A stretch of 64,000 nt of DNA from Kiritimatiellia bacterium (GCA_028718125.1 JAQUMN010000005.1:3784-67783), one strand, 5' to 3'. Shown: positions 17,089 to 64,000, counted from the stretch's first letter. The notes: generated by a model from the sequence alone, not told the origin. Numbers and translations: made by a program.

Positions 17089-17089
17089 A

Positions 17090-19570: not shown

Positions 19571-19572
19571 CA

Positions 19573-20205: not shown

Positions 20206-20225
20206 TCAAAAAAGGAAATACGAAC

Positions 20226-22067: not shown

Positions 22068-22451
22068 GTGGGCACATTATCATCAATCAATGTCCTGTTG
22101 GTCGTAATAATCGGCGTTGTTACCGCGATAGTCAGTTGGCGGGTGTTGTGCCAGGCACTGAAGTTTAAGAACCCGGTCCTAGGGATATGTGTTGGCGCTC
22201 TGACAGGTTTGGGTTTGGCAACGAATATAGGAGGAACTATGTCTGCACTCTTGATTCCCTACGCGGCGCTCGGGATTGCGATTATCTTGATGTTTCTTAT
22301 GGCCCCGTTTCTGAACCGAAAGAAGGACAAGGAAAAGAAGTCGTTATCGCCTGAGCCCACAAATAACGTGTGGAAGCCGGAAGACCCTTGGGAGCGGGAA
22401 ATTCGTCTGAATGGAAAAATGGCTGGCAAATTCAAGGCGAGAAAGCGGTAA
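22068..22451 (+). CDS. small membrane protein with Lys-rich C-terminal tail
   Basis: GTG start. 3 TM segments, then ...NRKKDKEKK.... Confidence 0.4.
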   Translation: MGTLSSINVLLVVIIGVVTAIVSWRVLCQALKFKNPVLGICVGALTGLGLATNIGGTMSALLIPYAALGIAIILMFLMAPFLNRKKDKEKKSLSPEPTNNVWKPEDPWEREIRLNGKMAGKFKARKR

Positions 22452-22491
22452 CGGGAATGGATGCTGTTTTCAAACAGGAGTTGACCCCGCA

Positions 22492-22977
22492 ATGGAAATG
22501 GATGTCGAGCATATGTCAAGGGATGCCAGGATGTGGCGGATTGGCCACATCCTGTCGAAAGGTATTTCCCTTATGCTCGCCAAGGAAATGGAGGAACGAG
22601 AAGCGCTGGCACGAAATGCACTAGCCACGCAATTCGGCGAAAACAACCGCGAAGGACAAACGACAAACTTGTGTGATGACAGCAAGGCGATCCTGGACTA
22701 TCTCAGGCGGGTGGGTCCAGCTTCACCGACTAATATCTGGCGCTACACGGGAATATCAAGGACGACCGTGTTCCGAAGGTTGAAAGAGCTGACTAAAGTT
22801 GGCTTATTGCAGAAGACGGGAAGGGATAAATCTGTGCAATATATGACGATCGGATTTGGCAATAATGATCCTAAACCCGATAATCCTTCGGCAATAAATG
22901 ACGGGAAGAGCGATTCCGGCATTAGTGCTGTGGATGGATCTGTTGAAATGCAGGATTTTACTCTAAACAAGAGATAA
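22492..22977 (+). CDS. winged-helix transcriptional regulator
   Basis: ...DYLRRVGPASPTNIWRYTGISRTTVFRRLKELTKVGLLQKTGRDKSVQY is a wHTH. Start chosen at the ATG at 22492 to avoid overlap. Confidence 0.45.
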   Translation: MEMDVEHMSRDARMWRIGHILSKGISLMLAKEMEEREALARNALATQFGENNREGQTTNLCDDSKAILDYLRRVGPASPTNIWRYTGISRTTVFRRLKELTKVGLLQKTGRDKSVQYMTIGFGNNDPKPDNPSAINDGKSDSGISAVDGSVEMQDFTLNKR

Positions 22978-24139
22978 GTTCGGAGACACGTTCTGAGTTC
23001 GGTGAAATATGGGCGCGCATGCTTGGCGTTCGAAGTAATTCCTCCAGGTTTTTGCGACTGCACGCGTGATATTTCGACATTATCCAGACAAATTCAGCCG
23101 TGTAGTCCGGGATAGCCCGAAGGAGTGAGTAACGAGCATGCCGAATATGATCATCTTCATTTGGAATCCATTTAGCGCCGCTCTTGGCCAGAATATGAAT
23201 GATTTTAATTTTCTCCCGCGACTCCGGGGTATCCACATTCCTCTGTCTGGCACTTGAATAAAGACTAAAAGAATAACCTAGTCCCGAAAGAAGGTTTTGG
23301 ATTGCTGAACATCCTCCGTTAGATTGATCGTTCGGGTTGACTCCGCATTCCAAAAGATACGTGATTAAGGCGGATGCATTCTCACCATGCGCGTATCGAA
23401 TTGCACTGGCAATAGCCGGATGTTTCGGATCGATTCTGATCTGTCTCATTCGAAAAACGTCATAATGTTCATATAGGGCGGCATATTCTAAGGCGCTTAT
23501 ACCATCCTCTGCGTCCTCTTCGTGTTCAGGATCAACAGGCCCGGAGGCATATAAATCGGCTCCTGCCCATACCATCAAGGAAATCCATTTCATATTGCCT
23601 TCCTTGCAATGATAACGAAGGGCAATGTTAATCTGTTGCTGGAAAGATGGAAATCGAGCCTTGTATTTGATTGCTATCTTCAAGGCAGTACGAATTCTGG
23701 AGCAAAGGGCTTGGGCGAGAGGATTCCCCGTGTCGACATCAGCGCCCCGTTCGATGAAATATTCCATAATATCGGGTTGCCAGGTCGAAAATACGTCATT
23801 CATATCTACAGATTTAGCGTTAGCACCATTTTCAACCAGAAGTCGGACCATATCGAAGCGTCTATTCCATAAGACACGAGAAAGTGCATCATACTTTTGA
23901 TTGCGCTCGATTTCGGCGCCACCTTCCAGCAAAACTTGTACAAGACTGTGGAATCCGCTTTCGATGGCATACTGTAAAGGACTTCGCGGACGTGCTCCCT
24001 TTTCCGGAGGAAGGGGTGGATTCACGGGTTTTCCTGACCTTATCCATTCCTGAACTGCAAATAGTTGGCCCGTCTTACACATCTCGATGAGGGGCTTAAC
24101 TTCTTCGTATGAGCTTGCTCTATTCATTTTTGCCACCAT
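22958..24139 (-). CDS. ankyrin-repeat protein
   Basis: Multiple ANK-like repeats (SPLQYAIESGFHSLVQVLLEGGAEI..., ISALEYAALYEHYDVF...). Confidence 0.6.
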   Translation of the reverse strand: MVAKMNRASSYEEVKPLIEMCKTGQLFAVQEWIRSGKPVNPPLPPEKGARPRSPLQYAIESGFHSLVQVLLEGGAEIERNQKYDALSRVLWNRRFDMVRLLVENGANAKSVDMNDVFSTWQPDIMEYFIERGADVDTGNPLAQALCSRIRTALKIAIKYKARFPSFQQQINIALRYHCKEGNMKWISLMVWAGADLYASGPVDPEHEEDAEDGISALEYAALYEHYDVFRMRQIRIDPKHPAIASAIRYAHGENASALITYLLECGVNPNDQSNGGCSAIQNLLSGLGYSFSLYSSARQRNVDTPESREKIKIIHILAKSGAKWIPNEDDHIRHARYSLLRAIPDYTAEFVWIMSKYHACSRKNLEELLRTPSMRAHISPNSERVSELISCLE

Positions 24140-25344
24140 ATAGAGCGCTGTTCAGATTTTTCGTCATCATCAATTTCGGCTTTGCGATCCAAAATGGATG
24201 GCGGGCTCTCAACAAGAGGATCCAGCCTATCGGCCTGTTGCTTGGCCCATTCGAGCCATTTACCGAGGTCGCTCCCGGAATCAATATTCTTGCCGTGTGT
24301 CATCGCGTTGGCTCTGACTGCAATAATATATTCCCGTAACTTTTGGCTGGCTTGCCAGTTCTTGGCTTGTTTCGAGAGTTCATCAATCTTGACCTGCTCA
24401 GCCAAGATTTGAGCAGCAAGTTCCTCGCGACGGCGTTGCTCCTCGCGTCGTTTCTGTTCTTCCAATTCCTGCTTTGCCTTGCGTTCCTCGTCCTGCCGGT
24501 GACATTCGCGAAGATATGAAGCATAAGCAATCATACCTTCGATCATGCTAAGCAAGTTGTTTTCCAAAGGCTTTTTTTTACCGTCCGACCAACGATGGCG
24601 CAATCCACTGCTAGAATAATAGTCCCGGCTGTTTCCTATCAATAGCCGAAGCTTGCCGGAGGGAGCCAATGTTGATTGGAAGGCATTATGGCGGAATGTA
24701 TAATGCCCTTTAATATCCCCAAGGTCTTTTTCAACTTGCTTTGATTCCAAGATTTCTTCGATGGCAAACGGAACATAGAATCCCATAATGCCGGCAATTG
24801 CGCCGACACCCTCGTCGCGCATGTATACCTTGTATTTGCGTGATTCCAGTCCCTTGATAAGACCATCCATGATGCGAAGGGCTCTGCGCAGGTTGTGTTT
24901 TGATACTCTAACGTCAAGGCATTCCTTGTCTTTAGGCAGGATAACTAGACCATTTTGGCCGAGTTCAGCTCTCTCCAACTGCGCTAATGTCTCATGGACG
25001 AAAGGATGGGCTCCTCGAAGGGTTTCTGGAACCGGGATCGCTTCATCTAGGGCCGCTTTCCGTAGCTCATCATTAAGTTCAGGGCTGGTCATAACAGGAT
25101 CATGCGCATGAATATCGAATTCTAGGTTATGCCCGGGATTTGGCAGATGTTCTATGGGAGGTGTCTGTCCGTTCTGTTTCTGAGCCCAATATCCACGAGG
25201 CGGCCTGGGGATGTCGTATTTCTTGCAGATTTTTGCTAACCCAACGTCGGATAAACCATATTGCTTTGATAATTTTGCCATAGGTTGCGACCACACCTGG
25301 TCGTAAAGCTGGGTCCGTGTGATATGAGCAACTTTTTGTTCCAT
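24124..25344 (-). CDS. hypothetical protein with conserved N-terminal motif and central coiled coil
   Basis: 406 aa. N-terminus ITRTQLYDQVWSQPMAKLSKQYGLSDVGLAKICKKYDIPRPPRGYWAQK. A highly charged coiled-coil segment (EERKAKQELEEQKRREEQRRREELAAQ). Confidence 0.55.
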   Translation of the reverse strand: MEQKVAHITRTQLYDQVWSQPMAKLSKQYGLSDVGLAKICKKYDIPRPPRGYWAQKQNGQTPPIEHLPNPGHNLEFDIHAHDPVMTSPELNDELRKAALDEAIPVPETLRGAHPFVHETLAQLERAELGQNGLVILPKDKECLDVRVSKHNLRRALRIMDGLIKGLESRKYKVYMRDEGVGAIAGIMGFYVPFAIEEILESKQVEKDLGDIKGHYTFRHNAFQSTLAPSGKLRLLIGNSRDYYSSSGLRHRWSDGKKKPLENNLLSMIEGMIAYASYLRECHRQDEERKAKQELEEQKRREEQRRREELAAQILAEQVKIDELSKQAKNWQASQKLREYIIAVRANAMTHGKNIDSGSDLGKWLEWAKQQADRLDPLVESPPSILDRKAEIDDDEKSEQRSIWWQK

Positions 25345-25434: not shown

Positions 25435-25458
25435 GGTTGGGTCTGTTGGGACTCATTT
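25435..25458. promoter_or_regulatory. conserved 24-bp motif (copy 1) downstream of ParB-HTH-like gene, upstream of the next gene
   Basis: GGTTGGGTCTGTTGGGACTCATTT. 23 of 24 identical to 30488-30511. Both copies lie 91-105 bp upstream of the next minus-strand gene start. Confidence 0.35.
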
Positions 25459-25510
25459 GGTGCCTCGAAAAAAAGGCACAGGACGAGTTTCTCGGAGGGC
25501 TAAGGTCACT

Positions 25511-25945
25511 TTAAGTGGTACTGATCGACACGATTGTCTGGTGCTCCTGGCGTATTTTTTCGAATGCGCTCTGGCGAGCAGAGACAGTTCTTTTTGCAAG
25601 AATGCAGCGCAGTCTATTTGCAGAGAAATGGCGCAGTTCTTGCCGCGTTTTGAGGGTTGCGACATAGCTGATAACTTCTTCTGGGAGGTTCAAAAGATTC
25701 ATAATTTGTGTTACATTAGCTCGAGAAATGCCGTTTTCCCTGGCGATTCTAGCTCTGGTTAGTTCCGGATCAGCTAGCAGGGCCTTCTGCCAAGCAAGAG
25801 CGGTTTGTACGGGGTTCTTGGACGTGCCGGGCAAAGATGATTCGGGCACGTTTGGCCTTGTGGCTTGCTCGTAGGCTACGACCGGATATGGGAAAGGATG
25901 CGCAATAAACGGACGCGCGCCCCACCTGGGAAATGGGATGCCCAT
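25511..25945 (-). CDS. ParB-HTH-like small DNA-binding protein (paralog A)
   Basis: IARENGISRANVTQIMNLLNLPEEVISYV resembles the ParB/Spo0J HTH (..SHVANLLRLLELPEEV..). N-terminus MGIPFPRWGARPFIAHP is shared with paralog B. Confidence 0.5.
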   Translation of the reverse strand: MGIPFPRWGARPFIAHPFPYPVVAYEQATRPNVPESSLPGTSKNPVQTALAWQKALLADPELTRARIARENGISRANVTQIMNLLNLPEEVISYVATLKTRQELRHFSANRLRCILAKRTVSARQSAFEKIRQEHQTIVSISTT

Positions 25946-26286
25946 GACGATGGAGATAAGGTCATAGTTCGTATCGGGCAGCGGCCTGCGGAGCCAACCC
26001 TTTGGAAATACGAACTTCGGGTCTCATCTTCACTTCCCTATAATATTCAAGTATTTTCCGGGGAATCCTTAATCAAGTACCTGCGAAAAGTTCGTATGTC
26101 GCACTTGATGGTGCAAACAGATAACGAACATTATCGGTATCATTTGTTCTTCAGCGATCATAAATCACTTCCGTCGTTTTCCCTTCTGTTTTGTCATATC
26201 TCCATACCCCGACTGTCAGTCATCGTGGGATCCAACGAAAATAATGCCACTGGCAAGTGATCATAAGATGAGGCATATTGGTCGTC

Positions 26287-28749
26287 ATGGAAGCGAACGA
26301 CCCAAAGTCTCTCATATTACGAAATAAGATCGATACAGTTCGGCGACAATTGTACGAATTTGAATCGCAGACATTGTTGCTGAAGGATCTACTCCGACAA
26401 CTTGAAAAGCAGCAAGCCGCACGGTCAGGCCCATCAGTATCTTCCCCCACTGCGTTGGTTCAGTCACCGCTTCACTGGACGGATGACAACGTGCGATTAT
26501 TCGCCTCGCTTTTTCGTGGTCGAGAGGATGTGTTCCCACGGCGATGGGAAAGCCGAGCTGGAAAAAGCGGATATTCACCCGTTTGCAGGAATGAATGGAA
26601 GCGCAATATCTGCCCAAAGCCAAAAGGAAAGTGTCATGATTGTCTCCATAAAGATTACGTGCCGCTGACTCTGGATCACATCCGCCAGCATCTCTCCGGG
26701 CGCGTGACCATCGGCGTCTATCCTCTGTTGCAAAACGAGACATGCCATTTTCTAGCGGTGGATTTCGATAAAAGCACATGGAGGGAGGATGTTACCGCAT
26801 TTATCCGGGTATGTAGCCAGCACAAAATAGCCTATGCTATGGAACGATCCCGGTCAGGCCATGGCGCACACGTTTGGTTTTTCTTCGAGCATCCTCTGCC
26901 CGCGCGGTTGGCCCGGCGTTTTGGTTGTGCACTATTGACAGAAACCATGGATACTCGTCATCAGGTCGGTTTAGATTCCTATGACCGGCTGTTTCCCAGC
27001 CAGGACACCATGCCTAAGGGCCAATTCGGCAATCTGATAGCACTTCCATTGCAAGCGGAGCCGGCTCGTTCTGGCAACAGTCTGTTTGTCGACGACCGGT
27101 TTATCCCGTTTGCCGATCAATGGGCATTTCTGAATACGATTGGACGTTTGCCCGAAACCGAAGTTCGGGCAATCGAGGAAGACGCGGCGCGACGTGGGCG
27201 CATTTTGGGTGTCCGGGCAGTGATCAGCGAAGATGACGAACAGCCCTGGAACACACCGCCTTCAGGCCAAAAACAGGTGCCTATAACCGGTCCGTTGCCA
27301 TCAACAATCGAGATCGTGTATGCCAATATGCTGTTTATACCGAAGGCGGTACTACCATCCGGCCTGATTAATCGGCTCATCCGGCTGGCCGCCATTCAAA
27401 ATCCGGAATTTTACCGAGCACAAGCCATGCGACAATCCACGTTCGGAAAACCCCGGATTATTTCGTGCGCGGAGGTATTGGAAAAATACCTCGCGTTACC
27501 AAGGGCGTGTTTAGATGACGTGCAATTGCTCCTAACCGAATTGGGTATTCACACTGTTTTATCAGACAAAAGATGTGCCGGGAAACCATTGCACGTCCAA
27601 TTCCGGGGGACGTTATCACCGGAACAAGAACAGGCGGTTAGCGCAGTTTGCGACCATGACTTTGGTGTGATCTCTGCGCCGCCGGCTTTCGGAAAAACCG
27701 TAGTCGGGGCTAAAATCATTGCCAATCATGGCGTTAACACGCTGATTCTGGTCTGTCGGCAACAGTTGTTGGACCAGTGGCGTCAACGCCTGGCCACGTT
27801 TTTAGACCTCCCGATTGAATCTATCGGGTTGATCGGGGGCGGAAAACGGAAACCAACAGGATTGATCGATGTGGCGATGATCCAATCGTTGATACGACAG
27901 GGCATTGTCGCTGATACGGTGGCAACGTATGGGCATGTTATTCTCGACGAATGTCATCACGGCTCAGCGGTGACCCACGAGTTGATCCTTCGCCAAGCGC
28001 ATGCCCGATACATTACGGGATTGACGGCGACACCCACACGGAAAGACGGACATCATCCCATCGTCTTTATGCAATGCGGCCCCATCCGTTACGCGTTAAG
28101 CGGTAAACAGTCCGCCCAACACGGACTTTTCTCCCATCGTGTCGTCACTCGACTGACCGGGACGGACACGATTGGCCCTGAAGAGCAGATTCAAATGCAG
28201 GACATCTACTCGGCCATTATACATGACGAGAACCGGACAAGTCTGATCGTCAATGACATTCGCGCGTCCATCACCAAGGGGAAAACTCCGTTAGTGCTGA
28301 CCGAACGCCGCGAACATTTGGATACTCTGGCAAAGCGCCTTACACCAGTTACCCGGCATCTAATCATCCTTCATGGGAACATGGGGATCAAACAGCGTCG
28401 GGAAATTATGGCCAGACTAGCCGCCGTACCAGAGAACGAATCTCGCATTCTGCTTTCCACCGGTAGATACATCGGTGAAGGCTTCGATGACTCACGGCTG
28501 GACTGCCTGTTTCTGACAATGCCCATCTCCTGGAAAGGTACGCTTCAGCAGTACGCCGGCCGCCTGCATCGCCTTCATCATGCCAAGCGTGAAGTCATCA
28601 TCTATGATTATGTGGATGCCAATATTCCGATTGCTCGCCGCATGTTCGAGAAGCGAAAGAAGGGGTATGCCGCTATGGGGTATGAACTGGAGGACAGTAA
28701 AATTCAGGCAGAGATACCGCTTCCGAATGACCCCTTATTGAATTTGTAG
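26287..28749 (+). CDS. primase-polymerase (AEP-like) domain fused to SF2 DEAD/DEAH helicase
   Basis: N-terminal half has a Cys/His cluster and ...VYPLLQNETCHFLAVDFDK...GHGAHVWFFF (prim-pol style). C-terminal half has helicase motifs I (ISAPPAFGKTVVG), II (VILDECHHGS), III (GLTATPTRKDG) and VI (QQYAGRLHR). The track start at 26278 is TTG; the ATG at 26287 is preferred. Confidence 0.7.
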   Translation: MEANDPKSLILRNKIDTVRRQLYEFESQTLLLKDLLRQLEKQQAARSGPSVSSPTALVQSPLHWTDDNVRLFASLFRGREDVFPRRWESRAGKSGYSPVCRNEWKRNICPKPKGKCHDCLHKDYVPLTLDHIRQHLSGRVTIGVYPLLQNETCHFLAVDFDKSTWREDVTAFIRVCSQHKIAYAMERSRSGHGAHVWFFFEHPLPARLARRFGCALLTETMDTRHQVGLDSYDRLFPSQDTMPKGQFGNLIALPLQAEPARSGNSLFVDDRFIPFADQWAFLNTIGRLPETEVRAIEEDAARRGRILGVRAVISEDDEQPWNTPPSGQKQVPITGPLPSTIEIVYANMLFIPKAVLPSGLINRLIRLAAIQNPEFYRAQAMRQSTFGKPRIISCAEVLEKYLALPRACLDDVQLLLTELGIHTVLSDKRCAGKPLHVQFRGTLSPEQEQAVSAVCDHDFGVISAPPAFGKTVVGAKIIANHGVNTLILVCRQQLLDQWRQRLATFLDLPIESIGLIGGGKRKPTGLIDVAMIQSLIRQGIVADTVATYGHVILDECHHGSAVTHELILRQAHARYITGLTATPTRKDGHHPIVFMQCGPIRYALSGKQSAQHGLFSHRVVTRLTGTDTIGPEEQIQMQDIYSAIIHDENRTSLIVNDIRASITKGKTPLVLTERREHLDTLAKRLTPVTRHLIILHGNMGIKQRREIMARLAAVPENESRILLSTGRYIGEGFDDSRLDCLFLTMPISWKGTLQQYAGRLHRLHHAKREVIIYDYVDANIPIARRMFEKRKKGYAAMGYELEDSKIQAEIPLPNDPLLNL

Positions 28750-28767
28750 TCTGAATATGGAGACTGA

Positions 28768-29568
28768 TTATCCAACGTCATCCAGGCGGGACAGGACATC
28801 TTGTTTCAAGAGATCGTATGCCTCCTGATGGGAATACGCAATTCCGTCACGTAATAGGTCGTCGGTATCCTGAAGGAACTCTGGTCTGAGGATCTTGCTC
28901 TCCATGTTCAATAGGTATTCCCTGGCCGTCACTCGCAATCTTAATGCCGACATATACCGGTGGAAGCATTGGATGATGCGCATCGGTTTCGCCTGTCCTT
29001 GCGTCAATCCGAGCCACAAATCGAAAAGGTCCCGTCCTTTCCTGCGCTGATACAAGGCCCGAAGCTTAGTGCCCAGTAATTCTTCCAGCCGGAAGATCGG
29101 GATTTCGCAACGTCCATTGAACCATCGTGATTTCACGCTGAAAGGACATTTTTCCAGACCAAGAACTGAAAAATGCTCTCGCGAATTGATCTCCACTTTC
29201 AAACGTAATGGCGTGATCGGCAGCGATTCGGATTGCATCCTGAAGATCAGGTTGACAACTCCCGGTCCCTGTTTCCGCCGTGGTTTTCCCAAAAACGGCA
29301 TCAAGACTTCGCGAACGGCATCGAAAATCGGTCCGATAGGACCGGGAACCATCTGAACAAGGTCAATATCTTCCGAGTAACGCGCCGGCGGCGAGAGGCG
29401 GATTTTATGCAGAGCCGTACCGCCGCGAAACGCCAGCTGCGCTGATAATACCGGATGGGCAAAAAGATTAACCAGGACACGGCTGATGATCAGGTCCTGC
29501 TCGACCATGTTCTCGTATTTCCACGGCGCAAAGGCCTTCCATTCAGTAATGAACGGAATCGGAATCAC
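28768..29568 (-). CDS. abiEii: AbiEii-family nucleotidyltransferase toxin (DUF1814)
   Basis: RGGTALHKI...YSEDIDL NTase motif (GT..., DID). 266 aa. 4-nt overlap with the upstream antitoxin. Confidence 0.8.
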   Translation of the reverse strand: MIPIPFITEWKAFAPWKYENMVEQDLIISRVLVNLFAHPVLSAQLAFRGGTALHKIRLSPPARYSEDIDLVQMVPGPIGPIFDAVREVLMPFLGKPRRKQGPGVVNLIFRMQSESLPITPLRLKVEINSREHFSVLGLEKCPFSVKSRWFNGRCEIPIFRLEELLGTKLRALYQRRKGRDLFDLWLGLTQGQAKPMRIIQCFHRYMSALRLRVTAREYLLNMESKILRPEFLQDTDDLLRDGIAYSHQEAYDLLKQDVLSRLDDVG

Positions 29569-30383
29569 GTTAAGTCCCCTTCAACATCCGTATTGAGCCA
29601 TACATTCCAGCGTTTATCCCGTTTAGACCCCTTGATCGGCAGTGATGGATGAAGCCGAACTGGTAAAGGCGCTTGTTTTGCCATCCAATCATGAAATTTG
29701 GTCGCTTTGCCTGCGAATTCCGTTTGTTCCAGCAACCACCCGAGCCTTTGCGCACAGGACAGGCAATCATCCGCCTTCGCGGCTTGAACCAGACGGCGGG
29801 GATCGATCTTTTCGTGAAGCTCCTGGAGAACGGTCAACACACGTCCCAGGCCACCAGCCCGGCGATAATAGCGCACCACATCCAGCGCCGTCGCTTCCGG
29901 CGTGGAAACCGGCAGATACCCTACATACCCCTTCATCTGTTCACGCGGCGTTGTTGCGATATTGGTCTTGCGGAAAAAACGGATCGCTATGCCCCGACAT
30001 CGGATATCCCGCATAGGGCGGTCCGTCACAACATGGTATGCTTGAACTTTTTGGTGGGACGCACCGTGGTAAGCGGCGGCGGATAGCACGCCGACATAAA
30101 ACGGGCGTTTTATGTATTTCATCAAATCGTTGATAAACCAGTCCGGTGGCAAGATCCCGGTGGCCCGATGCTCCAACGGTATGATGGCATAAAATCCACG
30201 ATAGATACGGGCCAAGCGCTTTTTCACAACCAACCTGGAAGCAGCACGATCAAAAGCCATCCGACTGAGTTCCAAAGCGGCAAAGGCTTCATCACGGGTA
30301 AACGTATAGAACCCGTGCATCTGCCTGTCATCTATCCATGCGGAAAGCGATAGGTTTGATTGATCCTTGGTATTCATTTTCAA
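29565..30383 (-). CDS. abiEi: AbiEi antitoxin / transcriptional regulator (COG5340-like)
   Basis: 272 aa. N-terminal wHTH (FTRDEAFAALELSRMAFDRAASRLVVKKRLARIYRGFY), a C-terminal domain, and a position directly upstream of abiEii. Confidence 0.75.
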   Translation of the reverse strand: MKMNTKDQSNLSLSAWIDDRQMHGFYTFTRDEAFAALELSRMAFDRAASRLVVKKRLARIYRGFYAIIPLEHRATGILPPDWFINDLMKYIKRPFYVGVLSAAAYHGASHQKVQAYHVVTDRPMRDIRCRGIAIRFFRKTNIATTPREQMKGYVGYLPVSTPEATALDVVRYYRRAGGLGRVLTVLQELHEKIDPRRLVQAAKADDCLSCAQRLGWLLEQTEFAGKATKFHDWMAKQAPLPVRLHPSLPIKGSKRDKRWNVWLNTDVEGDLT

Positions 30384-30487
30384 CCTGTGTTATCTAATGC
30401 ATAGCAAGACATATTTTGTCCGTTTATGCAATAATTATTTCAAGCGGATAAAACAAGATATTCCTTCGTTATTAAGCATTTTTATTC

Positions 30488-30511
30488 GGTTGGGTCTGTT
30501 GGTACTCATTT
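30488..30511. promoter_or_regulatory. conserved 24-bp motif (copy 2)
   Basis: GGTTGGGTCTGTTGGTACTCATTT. Lies 105 bp upstream of the abiEi start on the minus strand. Confidence 0.35.
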
Positions 30512-30583
30512 TGCATGCTCAAGAACACGGGTAAATCAGGTTTGATACCAAGGGACACAAGAAGAATTGGAACTCATCCGCAA

Positions 30584-30997
30584 TTATCGCGGGCATTGTT
30601 GGCGTAGTTGCCGGAATGCGGCGAGTCTGGCAGTGATGCTTTTTCTAGCGAGAAGGCTTCTGAGATTCCGTTCGGAAAAGTGGCGGATGTCTTCCCTGAC
30701 AGTCAAAGAAGTAACATAGGAAAGAATCTCTTTCGGCAGATCGAGGAGATTCATAATCTGCGTCACCCGTGCGCGTGAAACCCCTGTATTTCGAGCTATT
30801 CCAGCCATATTGAGCGTATTGTCGTCGGCTAACATCTGACGCCATGCCAAGGCGAGATGAACCGGATGCTGAGCAGGTTTTGCGGGTGCCACGTCGTGAT
30901 ACATATTGTCGTGTAAGTCATCCCCGTAGCCCTCAGGATATGAAATCGGGTGCACAATGAACGGCTTGGCGCCCCACCTGGAAAAGGGGATGCCCAT
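30584..30997 (-). CDS. ParB-HTH-like small DNA-binding protein (paralog B)
   Basis: MGIPFSRWGAKPFIVHP N-terminus and GIARNTGVSRARVTQIMNLLDLPKEILSYV HTH. About 55% identical to paralog A. The first 80-90 nt, including the 5'UTR, are about 90% identical at DNA level to copy A. Confidence 0.5.
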   Translation of the reverse strand: MGIPFSRWGAKPFIVHPISYPEGYGDDLHDNMYHDVAPAKPAQHPVHLALAWRQMLADDNTLNMAGIARNTGVSRARVTQIMNLLDLPKEILSYVTSLTVREDIRHFSERNLRSLLARKSITARLAAFRQLRQQCPR

Positions 30998-31290
30998 GAC
31001 GATGGAAATGAGGTCAAAGTTCGTATCGGGTAGCGGTCTGCGGAGCCACATTGACCACGGCTATAACCTGTGTTTTCTCTCCGCAGCGGCTTTTATTCCT
31101 TCCTTTCCATCTGGGGAAATCTTCATATTCCCCTTGTTTTTCAAGGAGCTACCATCGCATCCAACCGAGGCTCCAAAATCAATCAGAGCGGCAATTTTTC
31201 CCGGGTTATAGCTGACAATCCTAAAACAAGGTTTTACCGAACAGAGCTCGAACCTGTGGTTGCTGCGTAAGTGCCACGCATATTCGACGC

Positions 31291-31719
31291 TTATATTCCC
31301 TTGATTGCGAATAAGAAGAACGCTGCGATGGCAGCGAGAAGGAGCACCATAAAGATGATGGCCCAGCGACTTTCCTTTTTCTCTGGTTTGTGGTCTTGGA
31401 CGGCTTTGACCGTGATGTCTTCTCTACCCATTTCAACCAGTCGGTACAGTCCCATCCGCCAGACGATAATGATGGCCACAATTGCACCCGTAATGGCTGA
31501 CAAGTGGCCAATGTGAAACTTATAGAAGACTACAATAGCCACGCTGACGGCAATGGGAATTCCGACAATCCAAGCAAGCCAGTTATGACGATAGCGACAT
31601 CCGCAGAGAGGGCAACGGAATGCGCCATTCTCTTTCTTCATATCCATGCGTGCCGTACACCACGGGCAATATCCTATGCTTTGGAATGGCATCTTATTTT
31701 CCTTTTGGCGAACACTCAA
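31291..31719 (-). CDS. membrane protein with N-terminal zinc-ribbon (CxxC x2)
   Basis: CPWC...CPLC, followed by 3 TM helices. Confidence 0.45.
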   Translation of the reverse strand: MSVRQKENKMPFQSIGYCPWCTARMDMKKENGAFRCPLCGCRYRHNWLAWIVGIPIAVSVAIVVFYKFHIGHLSAITGAIVAIIIVWRMGLYRLVEMGREDITVKAVQDHKPEKKESRWAIIFMVLLLAAIAAFFLFAIKGI

Positions 31720-31764
31720 TTCAACGGGGTGGCGATAGTGTTGAACTTGCGGTTCGATAGTTTT

Positions 31765-32145
31765 TTATTTTTTTCTTAATATAACATCGCAGAAGTACGA
31801 AAGGAAACTTTGGTTTGAGTCCATAGGGCAAAAGAATGTCAGAAGAAATGCAATGACCACGAAAGGAATCCAAATAGTCAACATCAATCGTTTAGAAATA
31901 GTCAATGGAACTTTGTACATAACGATAGCAAGAATAATCTGATAAGTGCTTGTACCGATGAGGAGCGGGAACGAAAAAAGGCAAGGGTATGCCGCACCCC
32001 CAAGACCCATAGGGATTCTTAAGACATTCCACGAAAGTCCCAGAAAAAAAATACCCCAGAATAGAATGGCCCACAAATAACAAAGCAATGTGGCAAGCAC
32101 AAACCATTTGAATGCTCGCAATACCATTCTGCTCTGTTCTTTCAT
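31765..32145 (-). CDS. small multi-pass membrane protein
   Basis: 126 aa, 4 hydrophobic helices. AT-rich codon usage unlike its neighbours. Confidence 0.4.
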   Translation of the reverse strand: MKEQSRMVLRAFKWFVLATLLCYLWAILFWGIFFLGLSWNVLRIPMGLGGAAYPCLFSFPLLIGTSTYQIILAIVMYKVPLTISKRLMLTIWIPFVVIAFLLTFFCPMDSNQSFLSYFCDVILRKK

Positions 32146-32223
32146 CTTGTTTTATCGTGCGTTTACGGACCGCGACATGACATGCCGTCAATGCTCTGGT
32201 TCGATGCTTCTCTTTTTCCTTTT

Positions 32224-32601
32224 TTAAGCCAGTAGATTACCCGTACTATAATCGTTTTTTTTGCATTTGTTCCTTGCATTGATTATCATAAGGACGCCAA
32301 CAAAAAGAAATATCGCCGACAACATAAAGTAAAAGATAAATACAATAACACTGCCGCCGCTGAATCGACTTGATGCCAGAAATGTGTAGAAAGACCCAAT
32401 GAGAAATATTATTCCAGCAAATCGTTTCGCAATATTCAACTTTTTGATTATGCCGACAATACACAACATACTAACCACGGCTATTGTAATTGAGATAATC
32501 TTAAGCCGATAAGTATATAGTATGACTTTTAGCACTTGGACAATTGCTATATATGCAAGCAGTATTAAGGCCACAATATTTAGAATTCGCGTCTTTGTCA
32601 T
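32224..32601 (-). CDS. small multi-pass membrane protein
   Basis: 125 aa, 4 hydrophobic helices. AT-rich. Confidence 0.4.
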   Translation of the reverse strand: MTKTRILNIVALILLAYIAIVQVLKVILYTYRLKIISITIAVVSMLCIVGIIKKLNIAKRFAGIIFLIGSFYTFLASSRFSGGSVIVFIFYFMLSAIFLFVGVLMIINARNKCKKNDYSTGNLLA

Positions 32602-32839
32602 TTCTTACCTTCTATGATCGGCAATGAGGTTGAGGGGTACTATGCATCATCTTTTGTTGTTACGAGTGGGGCAAATCAACCCAAACCTGAAATTCAAAGT
32701 GATAATATCGTCTACAATCCGTGCGTTAAAGCACAAAACGGCACAATTTGACCAACTGGAAGGGCGCGGATAATCCATTCCACTGCCATATCTACAAATC
32801 ATTGAACTTGAGCGGCATCTGTCAGGTTATATCCGTGGT

Positions 32840-32854
32840 CTGCCCGAGGAGCCA
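32840..32854 (+). repeat. 15-bp copy of the tRNA-Asn 3' end (att-like direct repeat)
   Basis: CTGCCCGAGGAGCCA, identical to 57222-57236 (the last 15 nt of the tRNA including CCA). A chance 15-mer match in 64 kb is expected about 1e-4 times. Confidence 0.55.
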
Positions 32855-32856
32855 CA

Positions 32857-33004
32857 CAGTAGAACAAAGTTCACTGTGTGGCGGTGCAGTGAAGCGCAGC
32901 TTCTACTGCACTGACCCCCTTGTTTCCCCGCAGTAGAACGGAGTTCACTGCGGGGTGGTGCAGTGAGCCGTAGGCTCTACTGCACTACTCTCCTTGTTTC
33001 TTTT
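32857..33004 (+). repeat. two tandem about 74-bp units, each forming a nested hairpin
   Basis: Each unit has the form CAGTAGAA-n5-TTCACTG-loop10-CAGTGA(A)-n7/9-T(T)CTACTG-CACT...CCTTGTTTC. Both stems are preserved in both units while the loops differ. Confidence 0.6.
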
Positions 33005-34620: not shown

Positions 34621-37600
34621 TTACCCGCGTGATCCAGGCACCTTTATTTCGACGGTATGCTCGTGATGGTCGTCAACCAGCGCGATGGCGGCCAAGGGCT
34701 GCTCGTGGCCATCGACGATCATAGCGGGCGGTTGGGCAGCATCCGTCCCGACCCGGTTCACGGAGATGTGATAGAATGTTTCGCGGTAGCGATAATGAAG
34801 TTTGAACGATTCCCAGTCACGCGGCAGCCGCGGGCTCACCCGCAGGTGGTCCATTTCGAGCCGCAGACCGAGCAGCGTTTCGACGATCAGCCGGTACATC
34901 CAGCCCGCCGACCCCGTATACCAGCTCCAACCGCCGCGGCCGGTGTGCGGCGCGACGGCGTAGATATCGGCGGCAACGACATACGGCTCCACTTTATACC
35001 GGTTGACCTGCGAGGGATTCATGGCATGACGGATCGGGTTGAGCAGCTCAAAAAGCTCCCAGGCTCGCTCGATTTCGCCCAGTTCCGCGAATGCCATGAC
35101 CGCCCAGATCGCGCCATGGGTGTATTGGCCGCCGTTCTCGCGCACGCCGGGCGCATAGCCTTTGATGTAGCCGGGTTCAAGCGCGGATTTGTCGAACGGC
35201 GGATCAAAGAGCTGGATTAACTGTGCGTTGCGCCGGACCAGGCGTTGATCCACGCGCTCCATGGCCAGCCGTGCCCGCACCGGATCGGCCGCGCCTGAAA
35301 GCACCGCCCAGCTCTGAGCGATGGAGTCGATCGCGCATTCCTTGTTGGTAGCCGACCCGAGCGGTGTGCCGTCGTCGAAATACGCGCGCCGGTACCAGTC
35401 GCCATCCCACCCATGCTCTTCGATGGCCTGCCGCAACTGCGCGGCCTGCGCGGCGCAGTAGTCGGCAAACTCGGTCTCGCCCCGGCTGCGGGCCAGTTCC
35501 ACGAACTGGTGCAGCACATCGTAGAGTAAAAACGCCAGCCAGACGCTCTCCCCCCGACCTTTTTTGCCGACGAGGTTCATCCCGTCGTTCCAGTCGCCGG
35601 AGCCGATCAAGGGCAGCCCGTGTGCGCCGAATCGGAGGCCGTGTTTGATCGCCCGCACGCAGTGCTCATAGAGCGTGCCGTCTTCCCCCGAGCGTTGCGG
35701 CAGGTCGTAGTAGGCTTCCTCATCGGCATTCACGGGACGGCCTTCCAGGAACGGGACGCGTTCATCGAGCACGCCGGTGTCGCCGGTCGTCTTCACATAT
35801 CGGCAGGTCGCGTAGGGCAGCCAGATAAAATCGTCGGAGCAATGCGTGCGCACGCCCCGGCCGCTGGACGGATGCCACCAGTGCTGGACGTCGCCTTCGC
35901 CGAACTGGCGGCCGGCGCATCGTAACACATGTTCGCGGGCGACCCACGGGGCGGCATGCAGTAACGCGCTCGTGTCCTGAAGCTGGTCGCGGAACCCGTA
36001 GGCGCCGCCGGATTGGTAATACCCGCTGCGTCCCCACGTGCGACCGACCAGCGTCTGATACTCCAGCCAGCCGTTGACCAGCAGGTTCAAGGCGGGATCC
36101 GGCGTCTCGGCGTATACCACGCCCAGGGTCCGCTTCCAGAAGTCCCAGACATTTTCCAGGGCCAGCCGCGCGCTGGCCGGGCCGCTAAACCGCCGGACCA
36201 GCTGATGGGCCTCCTCGACAGAGTTGCCGGCGCCCAGCACAAAGACCAGTTCGCGTTCCTGGCCCCCGTCCAGGTCGAATGTCACCTGCAGCGCCGCGCA
36301 GGGGTCGAAGCTGGCCCCCGTCTGGCCGGACAGCTGCGCTTGGCGCATGGCGGCGGGACTGGCTGGCGTGCCGTTGCGCCCCAGAAACTCCGTGCGGTTG
36401 CCGGTCATCGTCCGCTGGGCGTCGCTGACGTTTACGAAAACCGTCTTGCCGGCGAACTCCCGGTTATACACATTGCGGGCAAAGAGTGCGCCCGTCGTCG
36501 GGTCGATCTCGGTGACGATGTGCATCAAGTTCGAATGCCGCCACTGGCCGAGGACCCATTCCCAGTACCCCGTGGCCGACAGGCGCCGCGTCCGTCCCGA
36601 GCCGTTGCGCACCTTGATCACCGCCAGTTTAACGGGTGCGTCCAGCGCGACGTAGGTCCACAGTTCCGAGCTGATTCCCAGGTGCGTTAACTCAAACACG
36701 CTGTAGCCGAAGCCGTGCCGGCAGATGTAGGTACCGGGAGCGCGCGCGGGCAAGGGAGTCGGCGACCAGAACTGACCGGTTTCCTCGTCGCGGAGATAAA
36801 ACGCCTCCCCGCTGGGGTCCCCCACGGGATCGTTGTGCCATGGGGTCAGGCGGAATTCGTGGGCGTTATCAACCCAGGTGTAGGCCGAGCCGCTTTCGGT
36901 GATCACCGTGCCGATCTGGGGGTTGGCCAGGACGTTGGCCCACGGCGCGGGGGTGGTCTGCCCGGGCGCGAGCGAAATCACATATTCGCGGCCATCGGAC
37001 GTGAAACCGCCCAGGCCGTTGAAAAAGATGCATTCCCGTTTGTTCGGCACGGTTTTTTCCGCCGGCAGCATGGCCCGCGTGGCGATGAAGCGCGGAACCT
37101 TCCGTTCCACCGGTGTCTGCCGCTCCACTTGCTCGGCCAGGGTTTCGGCGCTGTCGGTGAGGATCACGCGCGCGACGGTCTGCAAGAGGACCCGCTCTTC
37201 CTCCGAGAGCTGTTCGCTGCGCCGCAGAAAAATCCCGCCGGGCTTGTCGACGCGTTGCGCTTCCGTGCTGGCGGCGATCAAGCCCAGGATGCGGTCCTGT
37301 AAAACCTGGCGATAGCCGGAAAAATCTTCGTTCAGGATGACCAGGTCCACCGTCAAGCCTTTCTCGCGCCAGTAGGCATGGGCCTGGAGCATCTGTTTGA
37401 CCAGGTCGATCCGATGCACGTCGGCGATGCGCATCAGGACGATCGGCAGGTCGCCCGAGATCCCGAAGGTCCACAAGCCGGACTGGTTGAGCCGGTTCCG
37501 GGTGAGAATGCCGGTGCTGGCGCGGTGGAACGGATTGGCGTGAATGACGGAACTGGCCAGCTGGGCATACACCTGCGCCTCTGCCTCGGTCACCTGCAAC

Positions 37601-57161: not shown

Positions 57162-57236
57162 TCCGCGATAGCTCAATGGTAGAGCGGGTGGCTGTTAACC
57201 ACTAGGTTGCAGGTTCGAGCCCTGCCCGAGGAGCCA
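57162..57236 (+). tRNA. tRNA-Asn (anticodon GTT), with two acceptor-stem mismatches
   Basis: Hand-folded. D-arm GCTC/AATGGTA/GAGC. Anticodon arm GGTGG/CTGTTAA/CCACT. Variable loop AGGTT. T-arm GCAGG/TTCGAGC/CCTGC. 3' acceptor strand CCGAGGA + G + CCA. 5' acceptor strand TCCGCGA gives G4-A69 and A7-C66 mismatches. Confidence 0.6.
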
Positions 57237-58925
57237 GCCCCTTGGCATTACGAACTTATCCCCCTCCTTCGGGGAAACGCCTGTAAATAGGTCGGTTGCG
57301 TAAAGGGTCATGTTAACCAGATACCATTTAGTTCGTATTCGCGCCTTGAATACTCCTGGTTCAGCGGACATCTGATCCTTTTCCGGGTCAAAGTGGTTAA
57401 CAGTCACTTCCTTCACCAGAAGGCGAATTAACTCCTTCTGATCCTCCGGCGGCAACACCCGAAATACTTTTCCGAACTGCAGCAAGCTGTCGGCAATCAC
57501 CCTGGCATCTGTAACCACTTTCTCCCGGTACTGAATGTCGATCTTGACCTTCTCCCGCTCCAACTCAACCTGCCGTTTTTCCTCGGCCAACTGTTCCGCT
57601 TCTCGGATCATTTCATCGCTGATTCGTTTTGCGCCCTCTTTCTTCGCTGTGTCCATGAAATTCTTGACGGCTACAGACAGCTTATCGAACTGCTGGTCAA
57701 GCTCGGCCAGTTTGGCCTTCAGTGGTTTGATACCCTTATTCTTGGTCTCGTCGGCCGCTTTAATGGTCGCCTTAATGATATCCGGATGCTTCCCGATCTC
57801 GCCGATGTACCCGATGATCAGATCCTCAAATGGCCGCGCCGGGATGTTCCGAACCGAGCACTTGGCCTCTCCGCCTTCTTTTGAGACGTTCGTACAGGTG
57901 TAGTATAGGTATTGATTGCCGTTCTTATCCTTCTTGCCGGCGGGCTTTGGGGTGAGGCTGAGGCCACAATGACCGCATTTCAACAGGCCCTTCAATAGAT
58001 GAACATGCCGGTCCTGATGCAGGAAGATCGGGCCTTCCTTTTCTTTTGGACGCAACGCCTCGTTTGCCGACTGCCAGAGTTGCTGAGACACGATGGCAGG
58101 ATGTTCGGAGGGATATTCCTTGCCGCCATTGATGACGACCCCCTTATAGATTGGATTCGCTATCATCTCCTGTATACGACCACTGACAAACCTCTTATCG
58201 CCAACCACCTTGGTTGATCCGTCTTTTTGAACAAGGATTCGCTTTCGCGTGCGCCACCCCATCTTATTTAGGTACTTGGCCACGGCCGTCGGATTCTTGA
58301 GCTGGACCGCCTCGTCGAATGCTTTCGTCACAAGTTCTTGCTCGGCTGGTTTCAGGATAAGCTTCTGGTTTTTTTTGTCGTAGTCGTATCCCGTTGGCAC
58401 CCAGCCGCCGTTCCACTTGCCCTGCTGGGCGCGCTGGATGAGCTTATGCCGTGTGCGCTCACGGGTCTGTTCGCGCTCGAATTCCGCAAAGCTCAGAAGC
58501 ATATTCAGGAAAAGCATTCCATGCGGTGTAGCCGTGTCAATCTGCTGTGTAGCGCTGGCAAAGTTTACATTGTGCCGCCGGAGCTCTTCCCATAACCCAT
58601 AGAACTGCCGAAGTGATCGCGACAGCCGATCGAGCTTATAGACCACAATCATATCAACATTGCCGGCCCTTGCCTCGGCCAGCAGATTGTTAATCCCTGG
58701 CCGGTCCATCGTACTCCCCGAATAGCCGGAGTCTTCGAGATGCAGAGCGGACACCCATCCCTCTTCCTTGTGAATGGCAATATAGTGCTCGCAGATGTCC
58801 TTTTGCGCATCAAGTGAACTATACTCCCCCTGCGCCTGGTCGTCTGTTGATACGCGGGTATAGATCGCACATCGAACTGTTTTTGTGGCAACTTGTCTTG
58901 CAGATTGTTTAGAGTTCGTATTCAT
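57195..58925 (-). CDS. large serine recombinase (integrase)
   Basis: N-terminal resolvase catalytic domain (AIYTRVSTDDQ, VVYKLDRLSRS). Recombinase domain. Zn-ribbon (CGHCG...C..C) and a long coiled coil. The last 14 codons are encoded antisense to the tRNA-Asn 3' half. Confidence 0.85.
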   Translation of the reverse strand: MNTNSKQSARQVATKTVRCAIYTRVSTDDQAQGEYSSLDAQKDICEHYIAIHKEEGWVSALHLEDSGYSGSTMDRPGINNLLAEARAGNVDMIVVYKLDRLSRSLRQFYGLWEELRRHNVNFASATQQIDTATPHGMLFLNMLLSFAEFEREQTRERTRHKLIQRAQQGKWNGGWVPTGYDYDKKNQKLILKPAEQELVTKAFDEAVQLKNPTAVAKYLNKMGWRTRKRILVQKDGSTKVVGDKRFVSGRIQEMIANPIYKGVVINGGKEYPSEHPAIVSQQLWQSANEALRPKEKEGPIFLHQDRHVHLLKGLLKCGHCGLSLTPKPAGKKDKNGNQYLYYTCTNVSKEGGEAKCSVRNIPARPFEDLIIGYIGEIGKHPDIIKATIKAADETKNKGIKPLKAKLAELDQQFDKLSVAVKNFMDTAKKEGAKRISDEMIREAEQLAEEKRQVELEREKVKIDIQYREKVVTDARVIADSLLQFGKVFRVLPPEDQKELIRLLVKEVTVNHFDPEKDQMSAEPGVFKARIRTKWYLVNMTLYATDLFTGVSPKEGDKFVMPRGWLLGQGSNLQPSG

Positions 58926-59157
58926 ATACACATGCATAGTATCATATTACGAACTATATGCAACCATATTTATCATACAAAATTTTCTGACCACGACTCC
59001 GCCAGCATCAGCTGGATATACGACTAACCACCGAGTGTCTGTCCTGAGCGAACCTATGGTGAGTAAAATCGAACCAGTCGAAGGGCCGATGGATCGCCAA
59101 GCACCAGATTTTAACCGGCTGGTTCTGAAATAGCCGAAGATTGAATAGCGACCTTGC

Positions 59158-63999: not shown

Positions 64000-64000
64000 T

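Follow-up and report, generated by a model that had tools for sequence, protein, structure and literature searches.

The ParB-HTH gene pair

The window analysed here is a stretch of 64,000 nucleotides (nt) from a Kiritimatiellae metagenome-assembled genome (MAG; GCA_028718125.1, JAQUMN010000005.1:3784-67783). It contains two genes, HTH-A and HTH-B, which encode small proteins with a ParB-type helix-turn-helix (HTH), and this work deals with them, with the conserved DNA block in which both begin (the 5' block) and with the 24-bp motif that follows each of them. A reading of the window made from the sequence alone (hereafter, the sequence-only reading) had taken these features for a duplicated or cassette-like regulatory module. 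The genes and motifs are the following:

25945..25511, minus strand: HTH-A, ParB-type HTH protein of 144 aa, first gene of island A (Pfam HTH_ParB)
30997..30584, minus strand: HTH-B, ParB-type HTH protein of 137 aa, first gene of island B
25435..25458, minus strand: 24-bp motif A, tandem 9-bp repeat GAGTCCCAAC / AGACCCAACC (gene strand), at the boundary between backbone and cargo
30488..30511, minus strand: 24-bp motif B, tandem 9-bp repeat

The genes are same-strand paralogues, as had been proposed: both are on the minus strand and both exceeded the Pfam HTH_ParB cut-off of 22.6 (31.1 and 24.4 bits, respectively). Their protein identity, previously put at about 55%, was somewhat lower when aligned with MAFFT (46%). 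HTH-A starts with the conserved peptide MGIPFPRWGARPFIAHP, followed by a ParB/Noc/KorB-like DNA-binding domain. In the AlphaFold2 model of HTH-A, the confidence score (pLDDT) was >90 across most of residues 45-143 and low for residues 1-44, and Foldseek gave the DNA-binding domains of ParB, Noc and KorB as top PDB matches, SopB being also matched. No match to ParBc, the N-terminal ParB/Srx CTPase domain, was found in the HTH proteins. In addition, the TIGR00180 (parB_part) score of 32.8 bits was below the cut-off of 58.45 for a full-length ParB, no ParA partner was present among the genes neighbouring the HTH genes, and the repeats near these genes are direct 9-mers and not a palindromic parS.

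The two regions share a direct repeat of 113 nt (25884-25996 and 30936-31048, 84% identical), and their DNA identity leaps from 39 to 94% exactly at 25996/31048, which is the crossover core described below. Identity between A and B along the genes was distributed as follows:

Upstream of the core (5' of 25996): 39%
Core and P arm (31 nt, 25996-25966): 94% (29/31)
End of the P arm to the ATG: 85%
Codons 1-21: 78%
Codons 22-62: 39%
HTH region: 57%
C-terminus: 57%
Stop codon to the 24-bp motif: 42%
24-bp motif: 96% (23/24)
Past the 24-bp motif: 34%

The conserved DNA ends around a divergent body, on which the sequence-only reading was founded, were thereby borne out, the terminal identity (94 and 96%) being far above that of the gene body (39-57%).

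With respect to gene calling, the NCBI entry for the HTH-A gene (P0001, 112 aa), the closest protein, starts at an internal GTG at window position 25846 and therefore lacks the conserved GIPFxRWGAxPF peptide. Start calls within the HTH family were inconsistent between gene callers, with lengths ranging from 139 to 276 aa.

Proposed attachment-site anatomy of the 5' block

Three junctions of the HTH region, named J1 to J3, and the junction of the tRNA-Asn gene with a gene for a large serine recombinase (LSR) were compared. The arms of the putative attachment (att) sites are designated P, P' and B', and O is the core:

25966..26016, minus strand: J1, attP-like, 51 bp, with the P'1 arm, the core TGGCTCC and the P1 arm; inverted 9-mers AGTTCGTAT / ATACGAACT at its two ends
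26089..26097, minus strand: third copy of ATACGAACT, on the P' side, about 80 bp from the P' arm motif
31018..31070, minus strand: J2, with the P'2 arm, the core and the P1 arm
32823..32875, plus strand: J3, with the P2 arm, a copy of the tRNA-Asn 3' end and the chromosomal B' flank; right end of the array
57162-57236, plus strand: tRNA-Asn(GTT), the single tRNA of the window
To 57257, plus strand: P'1 arm next to tRNA-Asn, with TTACGAACT at 57248-57256; attL of a second island
57195..58937, minus strand: LSR, 580 aa (Pfam Resolvase, Recombinase and Zn_ribbon_recom)

The core TGGCTCC is the reverse complement of the tRNA end GGAGCCA, and an exact 15-nt copy of the tRNA-Asn 3' end is found at J3 (32840-32854). 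The tRNA-Asn junction (57224-57257) and the sequence at 25984-26017 were 82% identical over 34 nt; the left half of J1 agreed with the tRNA-Asn junction at 57237-57257 in 23 of 28 positions with unchanged spacing, and AGTTCGTA is placed exactly 20 nt before TGGCTCC at both. Written on the gene strand, the tRNA junction (reverse complement) reads AAGTTCGTAATGCCAAGGGGC - TGGCTCC - TCGGGCAGGGCTCGAAC and the junction upstream of HTH-A reads AAGTTCGTATTTCCAAAGGGT - TGGCTCC - GCAGGCCGCTGCCCGATACGAAC.

The element-borne P arm ends in the 9-bp motif ATACGAACT, and J1 as a whole is a 51-bp dyad. In the tRNA half the T-loop GTTCG is 6 nt nearer the centre, and in the chromosomal B' flank of J3 GTTCT is 8 nt nearer. 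When the tRNA end is joined to B', an attB-like dyad of 35 bp is reconstructed (GTTCGA-N23-TAGAAC; GTTCGAGCCCTGCCCGAGGAGCCACACAGTAGAAC). This is close to the geometry of LSR att sites, with an attP of about 50 bp, an attB of about 35-40 bp and a distal 9-bp motif lying further inward in attB. In the model of the Listeria A118-type integrase, the 9-bp motif of the zinc-ribbon domain occupies positions 16-24 of the attP half-site and is 5 bp closer in attB (PMC3783163).

The exact 9-mer ATACGAACT was found seven times in the window, and 22 copies with at most one mismatch were observed vs. 8.0 expected; the inverted pair at the LSR start codon, described below, is among the copies of this 9-mer. 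At the place equivalent to that of the third copy on the P' side of J1, a ATACGAACT-type copy is present at 57330-57338, within the LSR codons 'IRT'. The resulting three-site layout (-154/-74/-31) has its like in the related locus L013 (-155/-75/-32).

Some further repeats were observed in these regions. An inverted pair, AGTTCGTAT-N25-TTACGAACT, lies at 58913-58955 astride the LSR start codon; its outer span (41-43 bp) is between the attP-like and attB-like sizes, and the TGGCTCC core is lacking. The pair possibly serves as a binding site for autoregulation. Comparable degenerate inverted pairs are found at window 26089-26131 and at 5785-5827 of L006. Directly after the tRNA-end copy of J3 (32852-32999) there are two tandem 74-nt repeats, 78% identical and each with two hairpin-forming inverted repeats, which look like REP (repetitive extragenic palindromic)-type or terminator elements belonging to the native sequence that follows the tRNA. 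At J2, the end of the P'2 arm, CAATG, abuts the core (31049-31051; about 10922 in L005). In P'2-O-P1 junctions it gives an in-frame ATG (MWLRR… or MGLRR…) and an HTH protein 18 codons longer; HTH-B is 155 aa if started from this ATG, at 31051.

Conservation of the block in relatives

Genome and metagenome searches revealed relatives of the HTH proteins in Kiritimatiellae, Lentisphaerae and Verrucomicrobia. As to the search of other genomes that the sequence-only reading had proposed, the GIPF-type N-terminus was recovered (GIPFxRWG is encoded by 35 sequences), and so was the layout of three repeats described below, in clade-specific sequence. No GIPF-type members were found among viral contigs. 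The nucleotide block common to the family (about 35 loci, in other MAGs of the Planctomycetes-Verrucomicrobia-Chlamydiae (PVC) group) consists of NTGGCTCCGCNGG, about 18 nt, CGAACT, about 20 nt and GGCATCCC…, and its conservation ends abruptly 5' of TGGCTCC. What had been read as a 5' untranslated region (UTR) shared by two paralogues is this stretch, that is, the core plus the P arm of a probable att site that recurs at about 35 PVC loci.

The family comprises two subfamilies. A single nucleotide between CGAAC and GIPF (offsets -31 and -32) sets them apart, so that the core is read as WLRR… in one and as GSAG… in the other. In subfamily 2, GIPF is never directly preceded by a start codon, and in both subfamilies stop codons are often found immediately 5' of the block. 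The GIPF peptide is considered to be translated because there is a strong three-base periodicity downstream and its Arg alternates between AGR and CGN codons.

ARAGORN identified seven tRNAs in 41 family loci, all of them tRNA-Asn. In the six loci examined, without exception, tRNA-Asn is downstream of the HTH gene on the opposite strand, and in L003, L010 and L033 the P' arm AGTTCG(G/T) abuts it at the expected distance. In this regard, L003, from Lentisphaerae, is a complete island of 4.7 kb in which the flank is followed by the core and P arm, the HTH gene, SLFN/AlbA_2, a homologue of the 406-aa protein of island A, an ankyrin protein, the P' arm and tRNA-Asn; no integrase is present in it. 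Between the same island ends, L010 has RHH/PIN and a TOTE helicase.

The block could also act at the RNA level, as a structured leader in which a short upstream open reading frame (ORF), starting from the NTG in NTGGCTCC, is translationally coupled to the HTH gene and the inverted copies AGTTCGNAT / ATNCGAACT form alternative stems. An ATG, TTG or GTG does precede GCTCC in 19/19 sequences of subfamily 2 and 10/12 of subfamily 1, the 16-codon ORF of subfamily 2 mostly has NTGA at its end, which overlaps a potential start three codons ahead of GIPF, and the inverted copies co-vary (G/C vs. T/A). We regard a leader of this kind as highly improbable, given that the second codon position is the most variable one in that frame, that the ORF length is not conserved in subfamily 1, that there was no Rfam match and that the same motifs are found at the tRNA junction and at the LSR start codon, which have no such leader. 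A structured RNA or riboswitch was likewise discarded (no Rfam match at E up to 5; motifs also at non-leader sites).

Other candidates for the block were rejected as well. By eye, a σ54 promoter lacks conservation of the required -12 GC, and the -10 of an extracytoplasmic function (ECF) type would put the transcription start within the coding sequence. Programmed frameshifting was not retained: the release factor 2 (RF2)-like CTT TGA C is present in copy B only and not in the rest of the family, and the slippery A-run of subfamily 2 is missing from several members. As regards a functional tRNA-like fold on the opposite strand, ARAGORN found none, and the T-arm cannot form there because of the extra 6 nt.

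Probable small islands inserted at the tRNA-Asn 3' end

By its sequence, the 5' block appears to be the core and one arm of an LSR attachment site that stems from the tRNA-Asn 3' end, and behind it a conserved N-terminal peptide is encoded. We read it as an att site and not as a 5' UTR or operator born of paralogy because it is family-wide and homologous to the tRNA-Asn/serine-integrase junction. The ParB-HTH genes are probably the first genes of small LSR-moved islands inserted at the 3' end of tRNA-Asn. Their near-identical 5' ends would be built of the core TGGCTCC, the P arm and the first ~20 codons, with the family peptide GIPFxRWGAxPF, which is the reason why the similarity between A and B begins exactly at the crossover core. 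The three integrase-less islands (A, B and a mini-island, E3) would have been stacked by serial insertion at the core, and the island backbone would consist of the P arm, the HTH gene and the repeats, with different cargo attached beyond the repeats. This proposal rests on the anatomy of the sites, their homology to the tRNA/LSR junction, the association with tRNA-Asn, the insertion polymorphism and the cargo exchange at the motif. The insertions would be catalysed by an LSR, and the islands may still be mobile.

The islands lie in a region of low G+C content (about 49% at positions ~5-35 kb vs. ~64% in the flanks) which is rich in defence-type genes (RadC, NERD, HEAT-repeat, HerA-like, JAB, ThiF, AEP-TOTE and AbiEi/AbiEii). 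The order of the array is island A, J1 (P'1-O-P1), island B, J2 (P'2-O-P1), E3, J3 (B'-O-P2, gene strand) and chromosome, with the following content:

22958..25344, minus strand: cargo of island A, a 406-aa protein and a 393-aa ankyrin-repeat protein
26017-31048: island B, 5.05 kb, with the TOTE primase-helicase, AbiEii/AbiEi and HTH-B
26278..28749, plus strand: cargo of island B, AEP-TOTE primase-polymerase fused to a helicase, 823 aa (Pfam AEP-TOTE, ResIII and Helicase_C)
28768..30383, minus strand: cargo of island B, AbiEi/AbiEii toxin-antitoxin (abortive infection) pair (Pfam AbiEi_1, AbiEi_4 and AbiEii; PADLOC)
31049..32839, no strand assigned: E3 mini-island, 1.8 kb, with three small membrane-protein ORFs

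The 5.5-kb cargo that the sequence-only reading had seen bracketed by the HTH module does correspond to a discrete inserted unit, of 5.05 kb; the HTH genes do not form a bracketing pair, each being the first gene of its own island. PADLOC recognised AbiE as an antitoxin/nucleotidyltransferase pair (E-values of 6e-84 and 1e-102), and homologues of the AEP-TOTE primase-helicase are cargo in L006, L009, L010, L098 and L143. The 406-aa protein of island A matched no Pfam family, and its gene pair with the ankyrin protein is also the cargo of the tRNA-Asn island L003 of the Lentisphaerae MAG. In general, the cargo is typical of defence or toxin-antitoxin systems and differs from locus to locus.

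Insertion polymorphism was found at the core. In VSJD01, a related MAG, the B' flank GTGAACTTTGTTCTACTGCG directly abuts the core of the HTH-B orthologue. In the window, the same B' is at 32855-32875 and is separated from block B by E3 (1.8 kb), which is absent at this position in VSJD01. The ends of E3 are inverted 17-nt arms, CAGGTTATA(G/T)CCGTGGT, and the repeated core, and a different element with the same arms (type 2) is found on the tRNA side in VSJD01. The same core, therefore, has served for insertion more than once. It is at the core that the site similarity starts, which, together with this polymorphism, is indirect evidence for recombination there. The contig VSJD01000178 holds at least three HTH copies; tRNA-Asn at seven family loci and the 15-nt copy of its 3' end at J3 agree with tandem islands flanked by a tRNA gene and by partial 3' copies of it.

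Partial tRNA 3' copies at the flanks are a hallmark of classical tRNA islands moved by a tyrosine integrase, e.g., tycheposons, and the islands A, B and E3 have no internal LSR; the LSR and the ParB-HTH would then be bystanders. This origin is very unlikely. The genes examined, in the window and in the complete small islands L003, L006 and L010, included no tyrosine integrase, the common core is short (7-15 nt), the geometry of the dyad with its 9-bp distal motif is of LSR type, and C-terminal remnants of the LSR abut the P' arm in many loci.

The 24-bp motif and cargo exchange

The motif, GGTTGGGTCTGTTGG(G/T)ACTCATTT, is placed as had been described (about 50-70 bp downstream of each gene and about 91-105 bp before the next one): it is 52 nt (A) and 72 nt (B) past the stop codon, and 90 nt (A) and 104 nt (B) from the start of the following gene. 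It has only two copies in the window, even when three mismatches are allowed (0 expected, 100 shuffles), and is therefore not a generic terminator of this genome, a role that would have spoken against the sequence-only reading. Nor is it the mark of a duplicated module, since such sets of three 9-bp repeats are a feature of the whole family: most of its intact members have a motif copy right past the stop codon, about 60 nt that often include a hairpin, and then two tandem copies with a 9-bp period; in B, the third copy is ATGAGTTCCAAT, at 30566-30577, right past the HTH-B stop codon. The repeat sequence is clade-specific (TTGGTTCAC; TTCGCGCCA; CGTTCCAAT; CTCGTACCA), that of the window being GAGTNCCAAC / AGACCCAAC. 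No consistent tandem repeats were found after the HTH gene in distant Planctomycetota-type relatives. A run, CCCAATCCCAACC, which resembles the CCCAAC units of the motif, was observed just inside the P'2 arm (about 10880-10905 in L005; 6838-6860 in L006), and so such repeats may occur near both ends of some elements.

Four sequences with the HTH-B backbone combine two spacer variants with two cargos (AbiE or Fic/DUF4172), and all four combinations are present. The homology breakpoint of these combinations falls within the ~30 nt that hold the motif, which therefore ends the conserved backbone and marks the boundary of cargo exchange. Of the earlier proposal of recombination as the cause of the conserved ends, the participation of recombination at both conserved elements is supported, and its occurrence between the two copies is not. 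Similarly, the cassette-like nature of the units is retained; a duplicated regulatory module is not, the 5' block being family-wide and homologous to the tRNA/LSR junction.

A version of that module would make the HTH proteins paralogous, autoregulated transcription factors, with the 5' block as promoter, operator and 5' UTR, the motif as operator of the downstream operon, and gene conversion keeping the ends alike. The HTH fold is of the ParB/KorB type, KorB being a repressor, the repeats are between the HTH gene and the following gene, and there is a weak promoter-like site past motif A. We nevertheless judge this explanation unlikely: the block begins at the tRNA 3'-end sequence, is homologous to the tRNA-Asn/integrase junction and has tRNA-Asn islands beside it in other phyla too; start codons are lacking in many family members, and stops are located immediately 5' of the block; moreover, the insertion polymorphism at the core would be left unexplained. 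The HTH protein as such may still be a regulator.

The large serine recombinase and its relation to the HTH gene

An LSR adjoins an att site at the tRNA-Asn/P'1 junction, and the islands A, B and E3 themselves have none. The only cognate-type LSR of the window is encoded in the second low-G+C island, of which it is the first gene, directly after the real tRNA-Asn and 24 kb away, and presumably it would act in trans on the three islands. Its top NCBIfam matches were CcrB and XisF, the CcrB score being far under the cut-off. All three LSR domains are upstream of the junction. The ORF spans the tRNA boundary, extends 16 codons beyond the core and stops in the antisense strand of the tRNA (…DKFVMPRG/WLLGQGSNLQPSG, the slash marking the boundary). 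The tail DKFVMPRGWL is matched by the in-frame peptide DPKFVFPKGWL upstream of HTH-A, and C-terminal LSR remnants adjoin P' arms in L013, L097, L007, P0007, P0009, P0010 and P0013.

The synteny of the LSR/HTH gene pair and the position of the HTH gene next to the att site suggest that the HTH protein may be a partner of the LSR, either one that binds the repeats (as arm-type sites or as operators) or a directionality factor. More distant relatives (Planctomycetota and others) have a small ParB-HTH gene directly behind a canonical LSR gene, the stop and start overlapping as ATGA; in the GIPF subfamily, the att site is between both genes. The HTH protein is also the obvious candidate for binding the 24-bp motif.

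A bolder, and rather doubtful, possibility raised by these sequences is that in the excised attP form, or in tandem P'-O-P junctions, the LSR ORF runs in frame into the GIPF/ParB-HTH ORF. The LSR would then have a ParB-type DNA-binding domain at its C-terminus for as long as attP is intact and no longer. Integration would sever this domain, the LSR gaining a short tRNA-antisense tail instead, and the HTH ORF would stay at the opposite island end, in many cases with no start codon. The 9-bp repeats would be the arm-type sites to which the domain binds, and the outcome would be a state-dependent control of directionality without a separate recombination directionality factor (RDF). An LSR-tail remnant is in frame with the GIPF-HTH in window copy A, L002, L007, L013 and L097, and also in clusters P0007, P0009, P0010, P0012, P0013 and P0027, i.e., in at least 11 independent sequences of both subfamilies; the upstream LSR tail and the downstream HTH share one frame in both of them despite the differing core frames (WLRR vs. 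GSAG). The missing start codon before GIPF in subfamily 2, with stops just 5' of the block, and the ATGA coupling of the LSR and HTH genes in relatives also speak for this possibility. P0084 represents the other product, the LSR tail running into the tRNA antisense strand (IGS/RGRARSC). It must be noted that the in-frame LSR-tail loci examined are all relics without a full LSR. Against the fusion, no full-length LSR::HTH protein was present among 5.8 billion proteins, and L009 and L091 have a stop codon just before the core; therefore, a functional fusion is put forward here as a hypothesis. The contigs behind P0007, P0010 and P0013, inspected as candidates, contained no fusion and were relics. 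Literature searches on LSR with ParB and RDF, and on 'TOTE conflict system', found nothing.

Several observations weigh against the proposed islands, their mobility or the function given to the HTH protein. HTH-A and HTH-B share the motif at only 46% protein identity, and family members with identical recognition helices carry different repeats, neither of which favours binding of the motif by the HTH protein. The inward motif shift of 6-8 bp differs from the 5 bp of the Listeria integrase. Upstream of HTH-A and HTH-B, no σ70-like promoter was above background. Neither a tRNA nor a further junction was found at the left end of the array, which therefore appears to have been rearranged or truncated. 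For islands A and B themselves, neither excised circles nor empty sites were observed, and their activity is deduced from comparisons between genomes. Finally, P-O-P'-type junctions imply integration into attL or attR, which, to our knowledge, characterised LSRs do not perform without a directionality factor.

Neighbouring genes

At the left end, a MarR/IclR-like winged-helix gene (22411-22977) is convergent with the ankyrin gene and has a 77%-identical homologue beside an HTH/Dam island in L085. Near it, island A is without the expected P'-tRNA end, the array being seemingly truncated or rearranged there. The 406-aa protein (24124-25344) and its ankyrin neighbour (22958-24139) are 55 and 66% identical, respectively, to the pair in L003 (4785-7210) and may constitute an uncharacterised two-gene cargo system; the N-terminus of the former, ITRTQLYDQVWSQPMAKLSKQYGLSDVGLAKICKKYDIPRPPRGYWA, weakly matched the end of a PHROG 'HNH endonuclease' family. 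Further to the left, a HerA-like ATPase (PADLOC mad8/HerA), a Prok-JAB protein and a ThiF/E1-like protein are encoded in a row (16799-21678), and may form a ubiquitin-like defence module of the Bil or CBASS-associated type. Near this row are RadC (9117-9578), NERD (11834-12292) and a 1236-aa HEAT-repeat protein (12293-16003). In the high-G+C flank, a 2841-aa ORF (34621-43146) resembling, by eye, cyclic beta-1,2-glucan synthase / glycosyl phosphorylase is apparently ordinary chromosomal content.

The second island (57162-64000) encodes, in addition to the LSR, a 1104-aa PDC-M23B/Hachiman-like helicase (PADLOC E = 0), a 262-aa protein and a DprA-like protein. It was followed 7.9 kb past the end of the window (L180, 1-13324), where there are an NgoFVII/PLD-like nuclease, an MmeI-like restriction-modification enzyme and a PLD-SNF2 helicase, and at the contig edge a fragment that by eye resembles an excisionase-family HTH.

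Significance and comparison with known systems

PVC bacteria appear to gather AbiE, TOTE primase-helicase, Fic, Schlafen/AlbA and PIN genes as integrase-less cassettes at tRNA-Asn, a possible route for building and shuffling defence islands in little-studied phyla. The natural att sites of a new LSR clade (51-bp attP-like and 35-bp attB-like) are candidate tools. There is also a conserved candidate ParB-HTH partner, whose reading frame begins inside the att site. If the in-frame continuity of LSR and HTH were functional, it would be a new coupling of the make-up of a recombinase to the integration state of its element.

Among the known systems compared, integron gene cassettes were discarded, as no tyrosine integrase was found among the genes examined and the junctions are tRNA-end-derived with LSR-type geometry. 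With ParB, Noc and KorB the HTH proteins share the same helical fold and sequence family, but they have a 44-residue low-confidence N-terminus with the GIPFxRWGAxPF peptide and no CTPase domain; since the CTPase domain, ParA and parS are all missing, this is not a ParB partition locus. The SSV-type 'suicidal' tyrosine integrases, described as archaea-exclusive, have their att site in the recombinase ORF, and their catalytic gene is split and inactivated on integration (PMC8371274). An att site within a recombinase ORF, with integration altering the gene product, is also found here; in contrast, the enzyme is a bacterial serine recombinase and the exchange is confined to its extreme C-terminal tail, all three LSR domains lying upstream of the junction.

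The att sites of phage LSRs (PMC3783163) are similar in having the same motif nearer the centre in attB and a short shared core. Those described here have extra motif copies, on the P' side at a distance of about 80 bp and also around the start codon of the LSR; they differ further in their location inside coding sequence and in the shift (6-8 vs. 5 bp). Tycheposons integrate in tRNA genes with partial-tRNA flanks, newer arrivals pushing older ones inward; degraded remnants are common, replication modules are often carried, and LSR users are a minority, 910/937 having tyrosine recombinases (bioRxiv 10.1101/2020.12.28.424599). The tRNA-associated integration, the partial tRNA flanks and the stacking are common to tycheposons, other tRNA-island arrays and the present islands, which differ in being 1.8-7 kb in size and usually integrase-less, with a common backbone of P arm, ParB-HTH and repeats.

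The staphylococcal cassette chromosome (SCC) elements (SCCmec and the ccr-less pseudo-SCC, with CcrA/B/C) are alike in several respects: the insertion into a conserved gene, at its 3' end, by an LSR (presumed for the present islands), the tandem cassette arrays bounded by short repeated integration-site sequences with inverted arms, and the many cassettes with accessory cargo and without a recombinase of their own. In agreement with this, the top NCBIfam match of the window LSR was CcrB, far below its cut-off. Unlike in SCC, every island here keeps a ParB-HTH gene starting inside the att site, for which we know of no SCC equivalent; in addition, the target is tRNA-Asn and not rlmH, the hosts are PVC bacteria, and the cargo consists of anti-phage and toxin-antitoxin genes.

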